IMG/VR virus record: IMGVR_UViG_2802429225_000001
Source: a virus
Lineage: Duplodnaviria > Heunggongvirae > Uroviricota > Caudoviricetes
Length of the DNA stretch: 13,287 nt
Direction: 5' to 3' (one strand)
Shown here: piece after piece, positions 1,747 through 13,096 of the stretch
Position numbering within the stretch: position 1 is the first letter of the stretch
How the letters are laid out: the number at the start of each line of letters is the position of its first letter
Translations under genes and position numbers: made by a program
Notes under the pieces: model-generated
What the model was told of the DNA's origin: nothing
The model's database searches: none
What the model saw: the letters and a program-made list of their open reading frames with translations, nothing else

Positions 1747-3440
1747 AATTGATACAACGCTGCATGATTAATGGCGAACAGGTGGAAATTGCCGATATAA
1801 ACCTTGTTCTTACCCTGAATGCTGCCGGTCGTGGCTTCATTTCTGTTAACAATCTGTCACCCGAACACAGCCTTGCCGGCGCAATGGTACAAATTGATCT
1901 CGGCCGTGACGGTGAAGCATGGCGCTATTTCTCCGGCTACATTGAGCGCGATCAACCTGCTGAAAATGGCTCACGTCGCCTTTTTATCCGTGAAGCAGCT
2001 GCTGTGCTGGATTTTGATTTCCCTTGCTCCATGCAACACCCGACGTTGCGGGGGGTACTCGATAATCTGGGCAAACAAAGCGGCATCGTTTTCATCACGC
2101 CAGATGCGGATTACGTCAGCATACCAACTCCCTACATCACCCACAGCGGCAGCGGAGCACAACTGCTCAGCCAACTGGGGCGAGCATTCAGTATCAGCGA
2201 TTACGTCTGGCATCCAATGCCGGACGGTTCTGTATTTGTGGGAAGCGCAGCTGATTCACGATTTGCCAGTATTACAATGCCGGATATTCCGCAACAGTAC
2301 ACACTCGGGCAAAGCGGCGGAAACAGCATCGACATCATGTTTATGGAAACTGTGCGACCGGGCGTGAACCTACCGGCCGGGCGCATTACCCGTGTAGCCC
2401 TCAACAACGAGAAAATGACCCTGACATGGGAGCGCCTTACCGCCACGGGTAGCCCTGTTTCCAAATCACCATTACGCAGACAAATGGAAACACAGTTCCC
2501 GGAACTGGCCAGCGGTACTCTTCATACCCGGCTGGCGCGCGTCATTGCCCCAACGGAATCCGTCACCCTGGGCGATGTAGCCGACAGCTTCCGCCCACGC
2601 TACGCCGTTGATGTGCAGTTGCTTGATGAGAACGGCAACGATAAAAACGATACACCTGTTTACCCGGCAGTACCCCTCCCCGTCCCCATGGCTGGCAGTG
2701 AGGCGGGATGTTTTGCCTACCCGCCGGCTGGCACCATCGTGGAAATATCCAACATTGAAGGACGACCGGATAAACCTGTCATCAGGCAAATCTTACCCGC
2801 GGGCCATAACCTGCCTGATGTAAAGCCCGGCGAACAGCTGCAGCAACAGCGCGCAGAAGTGTTTCAGCGCGTCACGACTGACGGAAGCTGGCACAGAGAA
2901 ACCGATCAGCAAATCAGGGAGCATTCAGCCAGGCGAACCATTAACAGCGATCAGGAAGAACGCACAACAACAACCAGAACAACAACAGTACAGGCAAACG
3001 ACATAACCAGCGTTCTGGGAACCAGCAAGCTGATGACAGGCCAGACAGAACACATTACTACTGGCCATTATGCGATCGCAGCCGGTGAGCATATCCAGAT
3101 GGTAGCGCAGGATTTGCTGACTAAACTCAAAGGGGCGACATCCACCATCGAACATAACCTCACCGAAAATGTGGGAGGCCGCAGAACATGCCGGGCGGAC
3201 GGCGGCCTGGAATTTACCGCCCCGACTGTATTTATCGGTCGCGGTGGCTCACGGGAAAAATCCGGACTTAATCTGCTGACGTTGTTGATTGATATTCTGG
3301 ATCTGGTTCAGTTGCTGGCCACACACACTGCAAACCATACCCATAGCAATACTGGCGCACCAACAAACAGCAGCGAACTTGCCACAGACGCCCAACAGGC
3401 TACGAGCCTGCGCGAAAAATACGGTGACCTTATCGCCTGA
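1743..3440 (+). CDS. Prophage structural-type protein (565 aa); possible baseplate hub (gpD/gp27/VgrG-like N-terminal region) with Thr-rich linker and His-cluster C-terminal region
   Basis: Long ORF, translationally coupled to upstream gene. N-terminal segment (AWRYFSGYIER ... LRGVLDNLGKQSGIV) resembles the conserved hub motif of gpD/VgrG proteins as I recall it; C-terminal part has ERTTTTRTTTV and HTANHTHSNTG (HxH-type cluster as in spike tips). Functional call is by-eye only. Confidence 0.6.
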   Translation: MKLIQRCMINGEQVEIADINLVLTLNAAGRGFISVNNLSPEHSLAGAMVQIDLGRDGEAWRYFSGYIERDQPAENGSRRLFIREAAAVLDFDFPCSMQHPTLRGVLDNLGKQSGIVFITPDADYVSIPTPYITHSGSGAQLLSQLGRAFSISDYVWHPMPDGSVFVGSAADSRFASITMPDIPQQYTLGQSGGNSIDIMFMETVRPGVNLPAGRITRVALNNEKMTLTWERLTATGSPVSKSPLRRQMETQFPELASGTLHTRLARVIAPTESVTLGDVADSFRPRYAVDVQLLDENGNDKNDTPVYPAVPLPVPMAGSEAGCFAYPPAGTIVEISNIEGRPDKPVIRQILPAGHNLPDVKPGEQLQQQRAEVFQRVTTDGSWHRETDQQIREHSARRTINSDQEERTTTTRTTTVQANDITSVLGTSKLMTGQTEHITTGHYAIAAGEHIQMVAQDLLTKLKGATSTIEHNLTENVGGRRTCRADGGLEFTAPTVFIGRGGSREKSGLNLLTLLIDILDLVQLLATHTANHTHSNTGAPTNSSELATDAQQATSLREKYGDLIA

Positions 3441-3479
3441 TCACCGGGCATAAAGCCCCCCATAAACGCCCCATCACGC

Positions 3480-3508
3480 AACGCACGGCTCCGGTCGTGC
3501 GTTTTCAT
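3480..3508 (+). terminator. Candidate intrinsic terminator after the 565-aa gene
   Basis: Stem ACGCACG (3481-3487) / CGTGCGT (3496-3502), 8-nt loop, followed by TTTTC; lies 40 nt after the stop at 3440. Confidence 0.4.
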
Positions 3509-3983
3509 ATCTGCCACCTGATTAATGCGTTCTGCGTGCCATTCCGGCGCTGTATGCGCACACCACGTAAACGGTGTGACGTAAAGCGTGAGGTGACGTA
3601 AACCGCGCTACCCCCTCCAACCCGCGGGTTTTGTGTCGAAACACTTTTTCAGTTTTCTGCCGTGCAAAAATGACCGCCAGCCCGCGCAGCAACTGAGGGA
3701 AAAGCGAAGATCTGAAATTTCACGTTTTGAAATTTTTTGCAGTTTTCAGAGAGGTTTTTACGATCGCACAAATGGCAGGGGCAATAAAACTGCATGATAT
3801 TAAAAGAGTTTTCATGCTTTACGTGGGACAAGACACGATCGCGAAAGGATCGCGTTAAACAACTCTCAAACAAAGAAGCCAGACGCAGCGCGGCCTGCGT
3901 AAAATCAAGAGCCAGAATTAAACTGAAAAAAGGATCAATACCACGCCTCGATCGCGCATGACGATCTATGCAGCAACATGACG

Positions 3984-4050
3984 AAAAAAAACCGGCGCGA
4001 ACGCCGGCGGAAGCATGTATCAAATGCGTGACTGAATAATGTCTGCGGTC
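3984..4050 (-). ncRNA. Candidate small RNA (about 67 nt) with its own promoter and intrinsic terminator, divergent from the hok-like promoter
   Basis: On the minus strand: -35 TTGAGG (4079-4084), 16-nt spacer, extended -10 TGaTATAAA (4057-4065), then about 67 nt ending in hairpin CCGGCG-UUCG-CGCCGG (3992-4007) followed by eight U (A-run 3984-3991 on plus strand). No convincing ORF or Shine-Dalgarno inside. Confidence 0.35.
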
Positions 4051-4088
4051 GGGAATTTTATATCAGAAGACTGACAGGCCTCAACGGA

Positions 4089-4118
4089 TTGAAACAAGGG
4101 AAAAAACCAGGCTAGAAT
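4089..4118 (+). promoter_or_regulatory. Candidate sigma70 promoter of the hok-like mRNA
   Basis: TTGAAA (4089-4094), 18-nt spacer, TAGAAT (4113-4118); predicted start near 4125, exactly where the 5' element complementary to the 3' end begins. Confidence 0.45.
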
Positions 4119-4168
4119 TCGCGCGGGTGCCTTTCGGCTGATGGCTGGAGGGAATACCTGAAGGCCGG

Positions 4169-4351
4169 ATGTGGAAAGGCCCCGGAAAACATTTTTGTTT
4201 AACCGAGGCCCTAACCGTCTACCTAGCAAGTGATAGGTTAGCGCCTCCCCGAAAAAGGAGCAAGCGCTATGTCGCAAAAATCGCTTACAGCCATCACGTT
4301 CTGTGTGACGGCAATCCTCATCATCTGGATGCTGCACGGCTCGCTGTGTGA
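4169..4351 (+). CDS. mok-like overlapping reading frame (60 aa) upstream of and overlapping the hok-like toxin gene
   Basis: ORF starts at ATG 4169 (GAAGG 4160-4164 upstream), is in a different frame from the toxin ORF and ends inside it, as mok does in hok/sok loci. Protein shows no recognisable domain, so the role is by position only. Confidence 0.3.
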   Translation: MWKGPGKHFCLTEALTVYLASDRLAPPRKRSKRYVAKIAYSHHVLCDGNPHHLDAARLAV

Positions 4352-4409
4352 AATACGGATGAGCTTCTGGGGAGCGGAGTTTGCGGCGTTCTTACAGTGT
4401 AAGCAGTAA
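4269..4409 (+). CDS. hok: Hok/Gef-family type I toxin (46 aa small membrane peptide)
   Basis: ATG 4269 preceded by AAGGAG (4255-4260, 8-nt spacer). Translation MSQKSLTAITFCVTAILIIWMLHGSLCEIRMSFWGAEFAAFLQCKQ has a hydrophobic N-terminal helix plus the SLCEIR ... E.AAF motif shared with Hok (R1) and HokA. Below the size cut-off of the supplied ORF track. Confidence 0.7.
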   Translation: MSQKSLTAITFCVTAILIIWMLHGSLCEIRMSFWGAEFAAFLQCKQ

Positions 4410-4495
4410 GGAAACCGCGACGGGGGAGTAATCCCCCGTCAATCGGTTGCTAAGGTTGGTCGAAACGGCACCCTATCTCACAGACATGAACAACA

Positions 4496-4530
4496 AACCC
4501 GCAGCGTAAAAACTGCGGGTTTTCTTTTTG
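4496..4530 (+). terminator. Intrinsic terminator of the hok-like transcript
   Basis: Stem AACCCGCAG (4496-4504) / CTGCGGGTT (4513-4521), loop CGTAAAAA, followed by TTTCTTTTTGTTG. Confidence 0.6.
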
Positions 4531-4579
4531 TTGCCCTCACAAATGAGGGTGACACTATTCGTAAGCAATAGGCATGACA

Positions 4580-4627
4580 GATCGATGCAATAAATCCGAT
4601 CGATAAAAACGATCGGTTTGTTATCAT
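4580..4627 (+). promoter_or_regulatory. Regulatory region of the com-methyltransferase operon: three clustered GATC sites plus candidate extended -10 promoter
   Basis: GATC at 4580-4583, 4598-4601 and 4611-4614 (two within ATCGAT); TGtTATCAT extended -10 at 4619-4627 with no good -35 (the -35 position coincides with a GATC). Resembles the layout upstream of Mu mom. Confidence 0.4.
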
Positions 4628-4661
4628 ATCGGCAGCAGTAACCACACAAGAGGTGCCGCAA

Positions 4662-4859
4662 ATGACGCAAAATGTACGATGCAAAAATTGCAACAAACTA
4701 CTTGCCCGCGCCTCATTTCACTACATTGAAATAAAATGTCCGCGCTGCAAAACACTTAACCAGATAACGAGAGCCATTGAGCACCCCACACGCATGAGGA
4801 GTTATGACCGTGGGGATCGCAACCCAGCATCAACCAGTACATACACCGGAACACACTAA
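4662..4859 (+). CDS. com: Com-like zinc-finger translational regulator (65 aa from ATG 4662; the ORF track starts 3 codons earlier at GTG 4653)
   Basis: AAGAGGTG Shine-Dalgarno (4648-4655) 6 nt before ATG 4662. Protein MTQNVRCKNCNKLLARASFHYIEIKCPRCK ... EHPT carries the CxxC ... CxxC motif and surrounding residues of phage Mu Com. Confidence 0.8.
   Translation: MTQNVRCKNCNKLLARASFHYIEIKCPRCKTLNQITRAIEHPTRMRSYDRGDRNPASTSTYTGTH
4784..4815 (+). promoter_or_regulatory. Stem-loop sequestering the methyltransferase ribosome-binding site and start codon (candidate Com-responsive translational operator)
   Basis: CCCCAC (4784-4789) pairs with GTGGGG (4810-4815); the 20-nt loop holds GAGGAG (4796-4801) and ATG 4804. 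Lies inside the 3' end of com. Confidence 0.4.
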
Positions 4860-5610
4860 GATTTACCAGATTGACAATGCCACGCTCTGTCGTGGAAATG
4901 CACTGGAAATATTGCCGCTGATTGAGCCAGAAAGCATTGATGCCTTAATCACTGACCCGCCTTACAGTTCGGGTGCGACACACAAGGCCGGACGCACCAA
5001 CCAGGGCAGTCATGCAAAATATCTGAACGGCGAGAACCTTCACCGCTTTGATGGGTTCGCGGGTGAGAACATGGACGCCCGTTCGTGGGCTTACTGGACA
5101 CAATTATGGATGGCACAGGCACTACGTGCAGTCAGGTCGGGCGGTTATGCCCTGGTATTTACTGACTGGCGACAACTGCCTGCTTTAACCGATGCGTTTC
5201 AGGCCAGCGGTTTTACATGGCGTGGAATCATTGCGTGGAACAAAGGAAAGGGGTCACGAACACCCCATACGGGGTATTTCCGGCATCAGTGCGAATACAT
5301 CGTCTGGGGCAGCAAAGGCCATTTAGGTAAATCGCCTTCGGGTCCGTTCGACGGCTGCATGACGTTCCCGGTTATCCCGTCAAAGAAAATGCACCCGACC
5401 GGAAAACCAGAAGAACTAATGGCAGAGCTGGTCAGAACTGCGAATAGTGGCGGAACAGTCCTTGATCCTTTTATGGGGTCAGGGACAACGGGTGTGGCTG
5501 CACTGAAAGCAGGGCGAAAATTTATTGGTATAGAAACCAGTGATCATTATTTTGAGGTAGCGGCGCAGCGGCTTCGGGGGACTATTACCACAACCATTTC
5601 GACTACATAA
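4804..5610 (+). CDS. DNA amino-methyltransferase, beta class (N6-adenine or N4-cytosine; N6_N4_Mtase type), 268 aa
   Basis: Motif IV DPPY (LITDPPYSS) precedes HPTGKP and motif I DPFMGSGTT, the beta-class order (IV before I). Start overlaps the com 3' end out of frame (ATG 4804; alternative GTG 4810). Confidence 0.85.
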   Translation: MTVGIATQHQPVHTPEHTKIYQIDNATLCRGNALEILPLIEPESIDALITDPPYSSGATHKAGRTNQGSHAKYLNGENLHRFDGFAGENMDARSWAYWTQLWMAQALRAVRSGGYALVFTDWRQLPALTDAFQASGFTWRGIIAWNKGKGSRTPHTGYFRHQCEYIVWGSKGHLGKSPSGPFDGCMTFPVIPSKKMHPTGKPEELMAELVRTANSGGTVLDPFMGSGTTGVAALKAGRKFIGIETSDHYFEVAAQRLRGTITTTISTT

Positions 5611-5640
5611 GACAAAGCCCGCATTTTTTGCGGGCTTGTC
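5611..5640 (+). terminator. Hairpin immediately after the methyltransferase stop (candidate terminator; T-run is in the loop, not 3' of the stem)
   Basis: GACAAAGCCCGCA (5611-5623) / TGCGGGCTTGTC (5629-5640) with TTTTT loop; starts 1 nt after the TAA at 5608-5610. Confidence 0.35.
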
Positions 5641-5711
5641 TATCCTTACTGATGTGGACAGTTTGTGGATGCTTATAAGAAATAAGCTAATAGAAACAAT
5701 CTGTTAGATTT

Positions 5712-5737
5712 ACAAAAAACGCGCCCGAAGGCGCGTT
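5712..5737 (-). terminator. raiA intrinsic terminator
   Basis: On the minus strand: AACGCGCC-UUCG-GGCGCGUU followed by UUUUUU (plus-strand A-run 5714-5719); 24 nt downstream of the raiA stop. Confidence 0.6.
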
Positions 5738-5760
5738 GGCGATACACTCAATATAAAGGA

Positions 5761-6156
<396 letters not shown>

Positions 6157-6349: not shown

Positions 6350-7775
6350 TAATGCCAGTCAGTTAAGCAACTGACTGGCTCTTTTTCGGGGCTGTGGGGG
6401 ATTTCCAGGGTCTCTCCTTTACCACTCTCGGGAAGGCCCTTTCCCTTCTTGTCGGTAATTTCACTAGTTGTCCCATACTTGCAAGATCGCGCATCAGCTC
6501 CGGTATACGTCCCGGTGAAGCGCCCTGCAATGTCATCAGCATTCTCATCACCATTCCGCATGATTCTGAGAAACTCAGTTGATTCGGCCAGTAACCTTTC
6601 AGATGTTCTGCCATTTTAATCATCTGATATCTCACCAGATTATAAGCCAGTAAGACACCCCATAGCTCTTGCTCCACAAGCTCCGGCTTTTTACTTCTCA
6701 GCGTCAGCCTGCTCAGTTGCATCGTCTGTTTTATCTCCCTGTATCCCAGTTCGATTTCCCAGCGATGACTGTACAGATCCGCCATTTCTCCTCCGGGGAA
6801 GCGCATGGCGTCCGTCATCGACGTCAGCAGATGGCAGACTTTTCCTTTGCGCGTCACGGTCAGCAGGCGGGCTGTCACCTCATTTCCCAGTCCCGGCCAC
6901 TTTTTTCGTGCCTGCGGGCTGGTTTTCAGCTTCACCAGATGATCGCCTTTACCCAGTTTTCTGATCTCTTCATATTGCGCTCCCTTTCTGAGAGGGATCA
7001 TCCAGTGGCGGTGTTCTCCCGCCTGGCTCCAGGCATTTAACAGTCCCAGTGAGTAATAACCTTTATCCATTAACGTCAGGGTGTTATCGCCGGTTTGTTC
7101 TATAAGTTGCTCAGCAAGCTCATTTTCGCTGTTCTTCATCGTGCCGAAAGCTGCAGCCGTCAGCAGATGGCTGGTCAGTTCCATCTGGCAGACCATTTTG
7201 ACCTGCGGGTAGAGCGCCGGGTTCCCGGCATGTGTCTGGCGGGGGAAGGCTGCATCGTTCTCTGGTGTATCCGGTGTGCGCCAGAACACACCATCGATGG
7301 CCAGCAGGGTCAGGCCGCACCAGTGCGGATGCGGCGTGGCGTTATGCCAGAGCTGCGCTGTTTTCGTGAACACGCGGCGGACAGCCTCACTTCCCAGGCG
7401 CTGGCGGGCCTGAATAACGGCACTGGGGGCAACGAAGGGGCGATTGCCCGGTAGCATGATGTCCAGGCGATTCACAATCTGGTGAAGAGGTTCTTTACGC
7501 TCAAGCGCCATGCCAACAATACACCAGACCATCATTTCGAGGGGAAGACGGCGCTTGCGTAGCGTTACAGTACCTGATTCGGCAAGGCAACGAGAGATGA
7601 GTTCGGGGTCGAGGTAATCCCCCAGAGAAGTCAGTGGGTTACGCAGAGAATCGTAACGGGATACCAAATCAAGTGCCTGTCCAATGAGCATAAAAAAATC
7701 CGGAAACGAGTGAGCGTTTCCGGATTCTTACACAGCCACTGGATCGGTCAACTGATCCTTAACTGATCGGCATTA
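6350..7775 (-). mobile_element. IS4 insertion sequence, complete copy (1426 bp) with 18-bp imperfect terminal inverted repeats
   Basis: Ends TAATGCCAGTCAGTTAAG (6350-6367) and, reverse-complemented, TAATGCCGATCAGTTAAG (7758-7775), 16/18 match. Length 1426 bp and a single 442-aa transposase ORF match IS4 as I know it; flanked by the 13-bp direct repeat. Confidence 0.9.
6363..7691 (-). CDS. insG: IS4 transposase (DDE family, InsG-type), 442 aa
   Basis: Full-length ORF inside the IS. Start ATG at 7689-7691 is immediately preceded on the minus strand by an 11-bp stem (7698-7708 / 7715-7725) and a U-run, a typical IS read-through barrier. Confidence 0.9.
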
Positions 7776-10393: not shown

Positions 10394-10455
10394 CCTAAAG
10401 AATCAAGACGATCCGGTACGCGTGATTTTCTTTTCACATTAATCTGGTCAATAAC

Positions 10456-10483
10456 CTTGAATAATTGAGGGATGACCTCATTT
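10456..10483 (+). promoter_or_regulatory. Candidate sigma32 (heat-shock) promoter of clpB
   Basis: CTTGAAT (10456-10462), 13-nt spacer, CCTCATTT (10476-10483), matching the sigma32 consensus CTTGAAA / CCCCATnT; about 40 nt upstream of the clpB start. Confidence 0.55.
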
Positions 10484-10522
10484 AATCTCCAGTAGCAACT
10501 TTGATCCGTTATGGGAGGAGTT

Positions 10523-13096
10523 ATGCGTCTGGATCGTCTTACTAACAAATTCCAGCTTGCTCTTGCCGATGCCCAATCACTTGCACTCGGGCACGACAAC
10601 CAATTCATCGAACCACTTCATTTAATGAGCGCCCTGCTGAATCAGGAAGGGGGTTCGGTTAGTCCTTTATTAACATCCGCTGGCATTAATGCTGGCCAAT
10701 TGCGCACAGATATCAATCAGGCATTAAATCGTTTACCGCAGGTTGAAGGTACAGGGGGCGATGTCCAGCCTTCACAGGATCTGGTGCGCGTTCTTAATCT
10801 TTGCGACAAGCTGGCGCAAAAACGTGGTGATAACTTTATCTCGTCAGAACTGTTTGTTCTGGCGGCACTTGAGTCTCGCGGCACGCTGGCCGACATCCTG
10901 AAAGCAGCAGGGGCGACCACCGCCAACATTACTCAAGCGATTGAACAAATGCGTGGAGGTGAAAGCGTGAATGATCAAGGAGCCGAAGACCAACGTCAGG
11001 CTTTGAAAAAATATACCATTGACCTTACCGAACGTGCCGAACAAGGTAAACTCGATCCGGTAATTGGTCGTGATGAAGAAATTCGTCGTACCATTCAGGT
11101 ACTGCAACGCCGTACTAAAAATAACCCGGTACTGATCGGTGAACCTGGTGTCGGTAAAACCGCCATCGTTGAAGGTTTGGCGCAGCGTATTATCAATGGC
11201 GAAGTACCTGAAGGGCTGAAAGGCCGCCGCGTACTGGCGCTGGATATGGGCGCGCTGGTGGCTGGGGCGAAATATCGTGGTGAGTTTGAAGAACGTCTGA
11301 AAGGCGTGCTGAACGATCTGTCGAAACAGGAAGGCAACGTCATTCTGTTTATCGATGAGCTGCACACCATGGTGGGCGCAGGTAAAGCCGATGGCGCAAT
11401 GGACGCCGGGAATATGCTGAAACCGGCACTGGCCCGTGGTGAACTGCACTGCGTGGGCGCGACCACCCTTGATGAATATCGCCAGTACATTGAAAAAGAT
11501 GCGGCGCTGGAACGTCGTTTCCAGAAAGTGTTTGTTGCCGAGCCAACGGTGGAAGACACCATTGCTATTCTGCGTGGCCTGAAAGAACGTTACGAGCTGC
11601 ACCACCATGTGCAAATTACTGACCCGGCAATTGTTGCAGCGGCGACGTTGTCTCATCGCTACATTGCTGACCGTCAGTTGCCAGATAAAGCCATCGACCT
11701 GATCGATGAAGCGGCATCCAGTATCCGTATGCAGATTGACTCAAAACCGGAAGAGCTTGACCGACTCGATCGTCGAATTATCCAGCTTAAGCTGGAACAA
11801 CAGGCGTTAATGAAAGAGTCTGATGAAGCCAGTAAAAAACGTCTGGATATGCTCAATGAAGAACTGAGTGACAAAGAACGCCAGTACTCTGAGTTAGAAG
11901 AGGAGTGGAAAGCAGAGAAAGCGTCACTCTCTGGCACCCAGACCATTAAAGCCGAACTGGAACAGGCGAAAATCGCCATTGAACAGGCGCGCCGTGTAGG
12001 TGATCTGGCGCGGATGTCCGAACTGCAATACGGCAAAATTCCGGAGCTCGAAAAACAACTGGAAGCGGCTACGCAGCTCGAAGGCAAAACCATGCGTCTG
12101 TTGCGTAATAAAGTGACTGACGCAGAAATTGCTGAAGTGTTGGCGCGTTGGACGGGCATTCCTGTTTCTCGCATGATGGAAAGTGAGCGCGAAAAACTGC
12201 TGCGTATGGAGCAAGAACTGCACCATCGTGTTATTGGCCAAAACGAAGCCGTTGATGCGGTATCTAACGCCATTCGTCGTAGCCGTGCGGGGCTTGCGGA
12301 TCCTAATCGCCCGATTGGTTCGTTCTTGTTCCTCGGTCCAACGGGTGTAGGTAAAACCGAACTCTGTAAGGCGCTGGCGAATTTTATGTTCGACAGTGAC
12401 GAGGCGATGGTTCGTATCGATATGTCCGAGTTTATGGAGAAACACTCGGTGTCTCGTCTGGTTGGTGCACCTCCGGGATATGTGGGTTATGAAGAAGGTG
12501 GCTACCTGACTGAAGCGGTGCGTCGTCGTCCTTATTCCGTCATTCTGCTGGATGAAGTGGAAAAAGCGCATCCGGATGTATTCAACATTCTGTTGCAGGT
12601 TCTGGATGACGGACGTCTGACTGATGGGCAGGGGAGAACGGTCGATTTCCGTAATACGGTGGTCATTATGACCTCTAACCTCGGCTCCGATCTGATCCAG
12701 GAACGTTTCGGTGAACTGGATTATGCGCGCATGAAAGAGCTGGTGCTCGGCGTGGTTAGCCATAACTTCCGTCCGGAATTCATAAACCGTATTGATGAAG
12801 TTGTGGTCTTCCACCCGTTGGGTGAACAACATATCGCTTCGATTGCCCAGATCCAGTTGAAACGTCTGTACAAACGTCTGGAAGAACGTGGTTATGAAAT
12901 CCACATTTCTGACGAGGCACTGAAACTGCTGAGCGAGAATGGTTACGATCCGGTTTATGGTGCACGTCCTCTGAAACGTGCTATCCAGCAACAGATCGAA
13001 AACCCGCTGGCGCAGCAAATACTGTCTGGTGAATTGGTTCCTGGCAAAGTCATTCGCCTGGAAGTTAATGAAGACCGCATTGTCGCCGTCCAGTAA
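10523..13096 (+). CDS. clpB: Chaperone/disaggregase ClpB (Hsp100 AAA+ ATPase), 857 aa
   Basis: Two AAA+ modules (Walker A GEPGVGKT and GPTGVGKT) and the middle coiled-coil. I place the start at ATG 10523, which gives the 857-aa length I know for ClpB, with GGGAGGAG 10513-10520 as Shine-Dalgarno, rather than the track's ATG 10511. Internal GTG (Val149) at 10967-10969 matches the known ClpB-80 alternative start. Confidence 0.97.

Follow-up and report, generated by a model that had tools for sequence, protein, structure and literature searches.

The window analysed here is a stretch of 13,287 nucleotides (nt) from the Caudoviricetes virus record IMGVR_UViG_2802429225_000001. On its plus strand it carries a Com-family gene, com (4662–4859), and directly downstream, overlapping it, a gene for a DNA methyltransferase (4810–5610); a stem-loop at 4784–4815 spans the start of the second gene. 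The original prediction, made from the sequence, had taken this stem-loop for a counterpart of the structure that keeps mom of phage Mu untranslated until Com opens it. Loci collected for comparison are numbered with the prefix L.

The com gene and the methyltransferase gene

The product of com, 65 amino acids (aa) encoded from ATG 4662 to TAA 4857–4859, matches the Pfam family Zn_ribbon_Com (PF10122, E = 1e-11) and the PHROG family 'gpCom control of modification' (E = 3e-17). The zinc ribbon CxxC...CPRC is unchanged in the aligned Com proteins, all four cysteines being invariant, and com is preceded by a Shine-Dalgarno (SD) sequence of its own, GAGGUG at 4650–4655. The name given to com homologues by the Prokaryotic Genome Annotation Pipeline (PGAP), 'Com family DNA-binding transcriptional regulator', is at odds with published work, in which Com activates translation by binding RNA.

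The second gene encodes a beta-class N6-adenine/N4-cytosine DNA methyltransferase (Pfam N6_N4_Mtase, E = 4e-32) of 266 aa if read from GUG 4810 and of 268 aa if read from AUG 4804. Its motifs follow the order of the beta-class amino-methyltransferases, DPPY first and FMGSGTT towards the C-terminus, and its relatives in the PDB are CcrM and DpnA-type methylases. A link to the non-specific methylase M.EcoGII was set aside on the description of that enzyme (349 aa, with com unmentioned in its paper). The predicted Com site, the stem and the methyltransferase start all lie within the 3' third of com, whose open reading frame (ORF) spans the whole hairpin, as had been predicted, and stops 47–50 nt beyond the methyltransferase start codons.

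Predicted fold of the stem-loop

Direct reading of 4300–5900 placed the 5' arm CCCCAC at 4784–4789 and the 3' arm GUGGGG at 4810–4815, with GAGGAG (4796–4801) and ATG (4804–4806) in the 20-nt loop between them, and confirmed every coordinate of the original prediction. RNAfold on 4780–4820 gave the stem of 6 base pairs (bp) and, within the loop of the window lineage, an inner 5-bp helix (4793–4797/4802–4806), with a free energy of −15.3 kcal/mol (z = −2.55; equally stable shuffles, 2 of 200). The pair probabilities of the six stem pairs were between 0.90 and 0.99 in contexts of −14/+6, ±60 and ±120 nt, and a covariance model of the element scored the window with 73 bits at 4754–4827.

In this fold both candidate start codons are paired, GUG 4810 in the outer stem and AUG 4804 in the inner helix, and the SD of the methyltransferase lies outside the stem, as part of the loop or of the tetraloop that the inner helix closes. 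The idea that the hairpin buries the SD together with the start codon is thus right for the start codons but not for the SD, which is looped and unpaired. With a target start codon in the stem and an SD within the hairpin, 4784–4815 nevertheless has the arrangement of a Mu-type switch.

Additional pairing between 4777–4783 and 4816–4822 was left uncounted, as it is imperfect and restricted to the window lineage. A reading of the stem as a terminator or attenuator was ruled out: it has no U-tract, it is followed by AUCGCAACCC, and the terminator scan reported nothing there. An Rfam search of 4400–5000 returned no family over 4700–4830, whether at the gathering score or with E relaxed to 10; the sole match near the stem was a 12.8-bit chance match to a human long non-coding RNA model on the opposite strand.

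Start codon of the methyltransferase

The optimum spacing between SD and start codon in E. coli is about 5–9 nt. GUG 4810 lies 8 nt behind the SD, and AUG 4804 just 2 nt behind AGGAG, or 4 nt if pairing to the 16S rRNA is confined to GAGG. In 18 of the 18 loci examined, in which all lineages were represented, the arm GUG was unchanged and shared the frame of the downstream ORF; it is the sole possible start in L003, L041, L053 and L096. An SD-like AGGA or GGAG precedes it by 7–9 nt in the Mu-type loci, L003, L051 and L057; in L096 a GA repeat stands before it, so that the register of the SD is ambiguous. The AUG is an in-frame candidate seen in the window lineage alone and is absent from the lineages with Mom or a C5 methylase downstream.

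PGAP and the annotation of Escherichia phage Chuche both choose AUG 4804, as did the original prediction, and this codon does lie in the loop and in frame; the position homologous to the Mu start, however, is that of the 3'-arm GUG 4810. In Mu, the GUG start of mom sits in the stem of the translation-inhibition structure (PMC6483171). Because GUG 4810 combines an 8-nt SD spacing with an open frame in every lineage, whereas AUG 4804 has a spacing of 2 nt, we regard GUG 4810 as the likelier main start. Since both codons are inside the hairpin, the choice between them does not affect the regulatory reading. The additional AUG of the window lineage may serve as a second start with a different dependence on Com.

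Predicted Com-binding element

The RNA motif of Com is described as a hairpin loop that carries CC(N)2-3GAG, with a C-G closing pair and a crucial GA, and systematic evolution of ligands by exponential enrichment on Com yielded a bipartite GAG(N)2CC motif (PMC6483171). The window contains one bipartite match against 0.02 expected, with GAG-N2-CC copies at 4769–4775 and 4779–4785, so that the predicted element covers 4769–4785. Within it, a CC-N3-GAG motif (CC-AUU-GAG, CCAUUGAG) occupies 4774–4781 with C4774-G4781 as the closing pair. The predicted Com hairpin at 4771–4784 pairs G4771–C4774 with G4781–C4784 around the loop CAUUGA (4775–4780), whose GA (4779–4780) is invariant across the aligned junctions. 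Its stem in the window consists of G-C, an A4772·A4783 mismatch, G-C and C-G, compared with 4 bp in Mu.

A Com site had been expected at about 4750–4785, just 5' of the stem. The motif does lie in that interval, but it is not separate from the stem: it overlaps the 5' arm by two nt (4784–4785), and nucleotide 4784 belongs to both the Com hairpin and the stem.

Comparison with Mu and conservation of the stem

The Mu junction reads GAAUGCCUGCGAGCAUCCCAC GGAGAAACAUU GUGGGAAAAG, its stem ending in GUGGGA, and the window reads GAGAGCCAUUGAGCACCCCAC ACGCAUGAGGAGUUAUGACC GUGGGGAUCG, with GUGGGG as the 3' arm. The two stems, UCCCAC/GUGGGA in Mu and CCCCAC/GUGGGG in the window, align base for base. Both systems have a Com zinc-ribbon gene that overlaps its target, a small hairpin with a C-NNN-GA loop and, directly 3' of this Com hairpin, a CCCAC/GUGGG stem whose loop contains the SD and whose 3' arm contains GUG, and in both the stem falls on the same com codons (His-Pro-Thr ... 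x-Gly). They differ in the length of the loop (20 nt in the window, 11 nt in Mu) and in the outer pair (C-G versus U-A), and the window alone has the additional in-frame AUG in the loop and the mismatch in the Com hairpin. The cargo is different as well: the beta-class N6/N4 methyltransferase in the window, Mom (PF25680) in Mu.

Two collection scans with Com alignments produced at least 160 loci. Alignment A3 holds 26 distinct enterobacterial com junctions that carry the stem, and in it the stem columns (32–37/58–63) are paired in 156 of 156 cells. The outer pair is the only one to vary, with C-G in 18 sequences and U-A in 8, and the other five are fixed; shifting the 3' partner by 1–3 columns lowered the pairing to 33–58%. 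RNAalifold found the same stem unguided. For the Com hairpin (columns 19–22/29–32), compensatory changes were present at all four pairs, with the second pair unpaired in 15 of the 26 sequences, the window among them. The proposed correspondence with the Mu mom stem is therefore borne out by the direct alignment, by the retention of the stem in 26 of 26 relatives, by one compensatory pair and by RNAalifold.

Variants of the stem core were not found in two scans of viral contigs with the L057 and L096 Com proteins, which returned just other architectures, nor in a metagenome pattern scan with free arms. We conclude from these empty searches that the core stays invariant and that covariation rests on one pair. 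The covariance-model search gave strong matches confined to Enterobacterales and, in distant lineages, weak ones of 13–20 bits at the 3' end of com. E. coli D72 (L190, NZ_CP035312.1 at about 1119310) has a 2-nt deletion in the loop, ACACAT having become ACAT, which frameshifts and truncates the C-terminal tail of Com and leaves both stem arms and the zinc ribbon intact.

Judged from the sequences, the elements of the switch are present, are homologous to those of Mu and are conserved as RNA. We consider it probable that 4784–4815 is the translation-inhibition structure of a Mu-type com operon that carries a DNA methyltransferase instead of mom. By analogy with Mu, where Com binds the mRNA and activates translation of mom (PMC6483171), the stem would block translation and Com would open it.

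Points against this reading and alternative explanations

Several observations weigh against a Com-operated translation-inhibition structure. The SD GAGGAG is itself unpaired in the predicted structure, and the total energy is unremarkable in a 91-nt context (z = −0.94). Inverted repeats of this size are common, with 22 of at least 6 nt within 1.3 kb; as a bare 6-bp repeat is not rare, the significance of the stem comes from its position, its specific sequence (0.01 occurrences of the exact pattern CCCCAC-N8-26-GTGGGG are expected per window) and its conservation. Covariation is limited to a single stem pair, probably reflecting one evolutionary event, and the covarying nucleotide 4784 also covaries with its Com-hairpin partner 4771. 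The Com hairpin of the window lineage, with its A·A mismatch, is missing from the predicted minimum-energy fold. Across the family, a cruder count of enclosing helices did not distinguish lineage-deduplicated starts behind com from 137 control starts of these loci (p = 0.13). Two other measures of this comparison favour the reading, with differences that are significant yet small: starts behind com fold more stably, the minimum free energy of 45-nt segments being −10.0 (n = 53) versus −8.0 kcal/mol (p = 0.005), and are less accessible, the unpaired probability from SD to start being 0.41 (n = 48) versus 0.47 (p = 0.005). The island next to raiA resembles a prophage remnant in E. coli MB07081, so that the switch may be disused, and a literature search returned no experiment on this locus and no paper on the E. 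coli cassette. Finally, ribosomes translating com traverse the stem, and some opening independent of Com is possible.

This last point leads to the main rival, translational coupling in cis, in which ribosomes on com open the stem and binding of the Com protein plays no part. The com ORF covers the whole hairpin, running on to 4859, and the stem of the Com hairpin is weak in the window, as such coupling would allow. However, coupling leaves unexplained why every lineage has kept the Com motif with its invariant GA next to the stem, and it has no need of a zinc-ribbon protein under purifying selection. Com reportedly works in trans, as Wulczyn and colleagues are said to have found in 1989. The genes overlap in the same way in Mu, yet there it is the Com protein that binds the mRNA and activates translation of mom (PMC6483171). 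We consider coupling alone unlikely.

Alternatively, the stem could be a constitutive damper or an element of RNA stability or processing, with no switch, in a cassette that is perhaps inert in a prophage remnant. The MB07081 island is such a remnant and has no obvious late activator, and in E. coli 2014EL-1346-6 com was lost to an insertion sequence (IS) while the Com site, the stem and the methyltransferase were kept. Against this, nearly every copy of the junction has an intact com, 173 of the 5426 complete E. coli genomes contain the junction, as does the isolated phage Chuche, and the Com site is conserved beside the stem. A mere damper is thus very unlikely.

A third possibility is that the inverted repeat is a by-product of protein coding (His-Pro-Thr and x-Gly of Com and the first two codons of the downstream gene) and has no structural role in the RNA. 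Indeed, each arm is read in two overlapping frames, and EHPT and G are conserved in Com. But the synonymous sites of the arms are frozen, with Pro48 being CCC and Gly57 GGG in 26 of 26 sequences, whereas other conserved codons drift: all ten amino-acid-invariant codons of the zinc finger vary synonymously, and Pro27, for example, is CCG in 19 sequences, CCT in 4, CCC in 2 and CCA in 1. Codon 56 is NGU, its first base outside the stem varying (R/C/G/S) while its two stem bases are fixed, so that it swaps amino acids and keeps the stem. The third base of the His codon covaries with the base 3' of GUGGG. The tail of Com is reported to be unnecessary for binding RNA (PMC6483171) and is frameshifted in D72 with the arms intact, and the downstream proteins are unrelated to each other. 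A coding by-product is highly improbable in view of these patterns of substitution, which indicate that the constraint on the arms acts at the level of RNA rather than of protein.

A functionless chance hairpin, for which the 22 inverted repeats within 1.3 kb and the z-score in the 91-nt context could be cited, has a negligible probability, as 26 distinct sequences, with three different cargo genes among them, keep the same register and the specific pattern is so rarely expected.

Candidate promoter region

Upstream of com, three GATC sites (4580–4583, 4598–4601 and 4611–4614) form a cluster at 4580–4614 with spacings of 18 and 13 bp. The spacing of the Mu sites (L001, 789–792, 807–810 and 820–823) is identical, and the two promoter-proximal sites are invariant in alignment A4, which covers 8 lineages. 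The cluster is homologous to the one upstream of com and mom in Mu, the region through which Dam and OxyR control Pmom. A promoter-like site at 4600–4627 on the plus strand overlaps the cluster in the window and is a candidate promoter of the com and methyltransferase genes; it was assigned by consensus match, with TCGATA (4600–4605) as −35, TG at 4619–4620 and TATCAT (4622–4627) as −10. It is the sole sigma-70-like match in 4200–5800 (9 of 12 positions, with TG), a number not above that in shuffled sequences (1 found, 1.8 expected).

About 40 bp that in Mu separate the GATC sites from the SD of com are missing in the window and in four other non-Mu lineages (A4). The activator C of Mu binds in this segment. 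Transcription of the cassette may thus be sensitive to methylation but independent of the Mu C activator. As the cargo is not Mom and this promoter segment is missing, the locus is not a com-mom operon, even though it shares the RNA elements of com-mom by descent and would work alike.

Proposed mechanism

In the mechanism that we propose, the promoter next to the GATC cluster would give rise to a bicistronic com-methyltransferase mRNA, from which com would be translated through its own open ribosome-binding site. As long as Com is absent, the G+C-rich 6-bp stem would hold GUG 4810 and the inner helix AUG 4804, with the SD confined to the loop; loading of the 30S subunit would be blocked and the methyltransferase would stay off. 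Once accumulated, Com would bind the C-NNN-GA hairpin and the GAG-N2-CC motifs at 4769–4785. As the Com hairpin shares C4784 with the 5' arm, and the Com motif C4784–C4785, binding would destabilize the stem and free the start region, so that the methyltransferase would be made in a burst late on. The switch probably serves to have phage DNA modified against restriction and the lysogen spared unscheduled methylation.

Other com operons and exchange of the cargo gene

Com homologues are known to precede non-specific adenine methyltransferases in FluMu of Haemophilus (com-hin1523, hia5) and in Neisseria Pnm1 (com-nma1821), and 'possible Com binding sites' were already noted for hin1523 (PMC3299994). 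As in the window, Com is paired there with a DNA methyltransferase rather than with Mom. In contrast to the beta-class enzyme of the window, however, the FluMu and Pnm1 methyltransferases are related to Dam and M1.DpnII (PMC3299994). The Haemophilus loci (L132/L156) have a Com-type hairpin followed by a different 7-bp stem, GCCAUAG/CUAUGGC, whose loop contains the SD and whose 3' arm contains AUG; com stops before this stem and does not overlap it. In Pseudomonas phage B3 (ORF47, Com, and ORF48, a DNA adenine methylase) and its relatives JD024 and UMP151, Com overlaps a Dam-like or Mom-like modification gene; hairpins of the GCGC-CAUCGA-GCGC type with a CC-N3-GAG motif are present, but the CCCAC/GUGGG stem is lacking. 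Pairs of com and methyltransferase genes were therefore already known from FluMu, Pnm1 and phage B3, and the window is a new example of a known switch, with the mechanism unchanged. Like other hairpins that sequester ribosome-binding sites, it places the start region in a stable local helix that would be activated by remodelling; it differs from them in that the activator is a dedicated zinc-ribbon protein from the same mRNA and that the element lies inside the coding sequence of its own activator.

Distant com operons, those of Haemophilus included, resemble the window in layout although their stems differ in sequence, which favours the main reading. In Acinetobacter (L104, L111, L128, L141–L153), two Com-type hairpins stand in tandem, and an 8-bp helix that does not vary, CUUACCUG/CAGGUAAG, pairs the SD and encloses the second, covarying Com hairpin, a layout that appears to be a different solution to the same regulatory problem. 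In L176, the SD region is complementary to the 3' half of the Com hairpin.

Three types of enzyme, classified by Pfam, follow the same stem: Mom in Mu, L034, L057, L096 and others, C5 DNA_methylase in L003 and L051, and N6_N4_Mtase in the window. The Mu-like elements L003 and L034 carry a C5 methylase and Mom, respectively, behind near-identical com genes, with an identity of 90–97% from −200 to +9 of the GUG and of 45–58% beyond. This drop past +9 shows that the cargo was exchanged immediately 3' of the stem. Whether com, the Com hairpin and the CCCAC/GUGGG stem more generally form a portable 'safety-catch' cassette is in our judgement evenly balanced; such a cassette would have been recombined before at least three unrelated DNA-modification enzymes by crossover within about 10 nt 3' of the stem, with the GUG-GGR of the arm serving as the first two codons of the cargo.

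Genomic surroundings and distribution

The cassette is bounded as a separate unit by hok/gef and a terminator (4495–4522) before it and by a hairpin at 5615–5637 after it. The latter, a terminator-like hairpin on the plus strand (AAGCCCGCA/TGCGGGCTT), begins 5 nt past the methyltransferase stop and marks the end of the cassette; it has no clear U-tract on the plus strand. On the other side, two strong hairpins stand behind an ORF for a Hok/Gef family toxin (4269–4409, Pfam E = 4e-7), at 4419–4440 and 4495–4522, the second being a terminator with a U-tract, and we conclude that 4269–4522 is a killer locus of the hok/sok type. The hok part is about 95% identical to P88-like Peduoviridae phages, in which it is annotated as 'MokW-like host killing'. 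Further upstream, about 830 bp between a baseplate-like gene and hok (3440–4270) are without a convincing gene; two minus-strand ORFs in this part (3649–4023 and 4020–4337) have no or weak family matches, and E. coli MB07081 has no annotation in the corresponding part.

Behind the hairpin at 5615–5637, raiA comes next on the opposite strand, and the chromosomal genes raiA, IS4, bamD, rluD, yfiH, RyfD and clpB, about 96% identical to E. coli, make up the downstream part. The IS4-family transposase (442 aa, 6363–7691, minus strand) lies between raiA and bamD, an arrangement shared by 335 of the 5426 complete E. coli genomes. The small RNA RyfD (10404–10542; Rfam RF02768, 125 bits) is located directly upstream of the clpB ORF (10511–13096) and overlaps its start.

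The hok-com-methyltransferase block is 93% identical to phage Chuche, where the genes are annotated as 'gpCom control of modification' and 'DNA methyltransferase'. The host element is thus not Mu-like, in further difference from com-mom: its closest phage is Chuche and its hok region is of the Peduoviridae type. In the E. coli genomes that carry it (about 3%), the junction occurs at varied chromosomal positions. In 2014EL-1346-6 (L191, NZ_CP024232.1 at about 3331480), the IS21-family element IS100kyp ends just upstream of ACGAGAGCC.

Implications

Two routine annotations would need correcting: that of Com as a DNA-binding regulator and that of the methyltransferase start at AUG 4804. The locus is a natural and compact example of a single RNA-protein regulatory module reused for different cargo, and potentially a portable translational switch. 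The copy in 2014EL-1346-6 is a natural one without its activator, and would be locked off if the model is true. More generally, the prophage methyltransferase of about 3% of complete E. coli genomes would then be silent in lysogens and switched on late, which is relevant to methylome studies that find such methyltransferase genes 'not expressed'.

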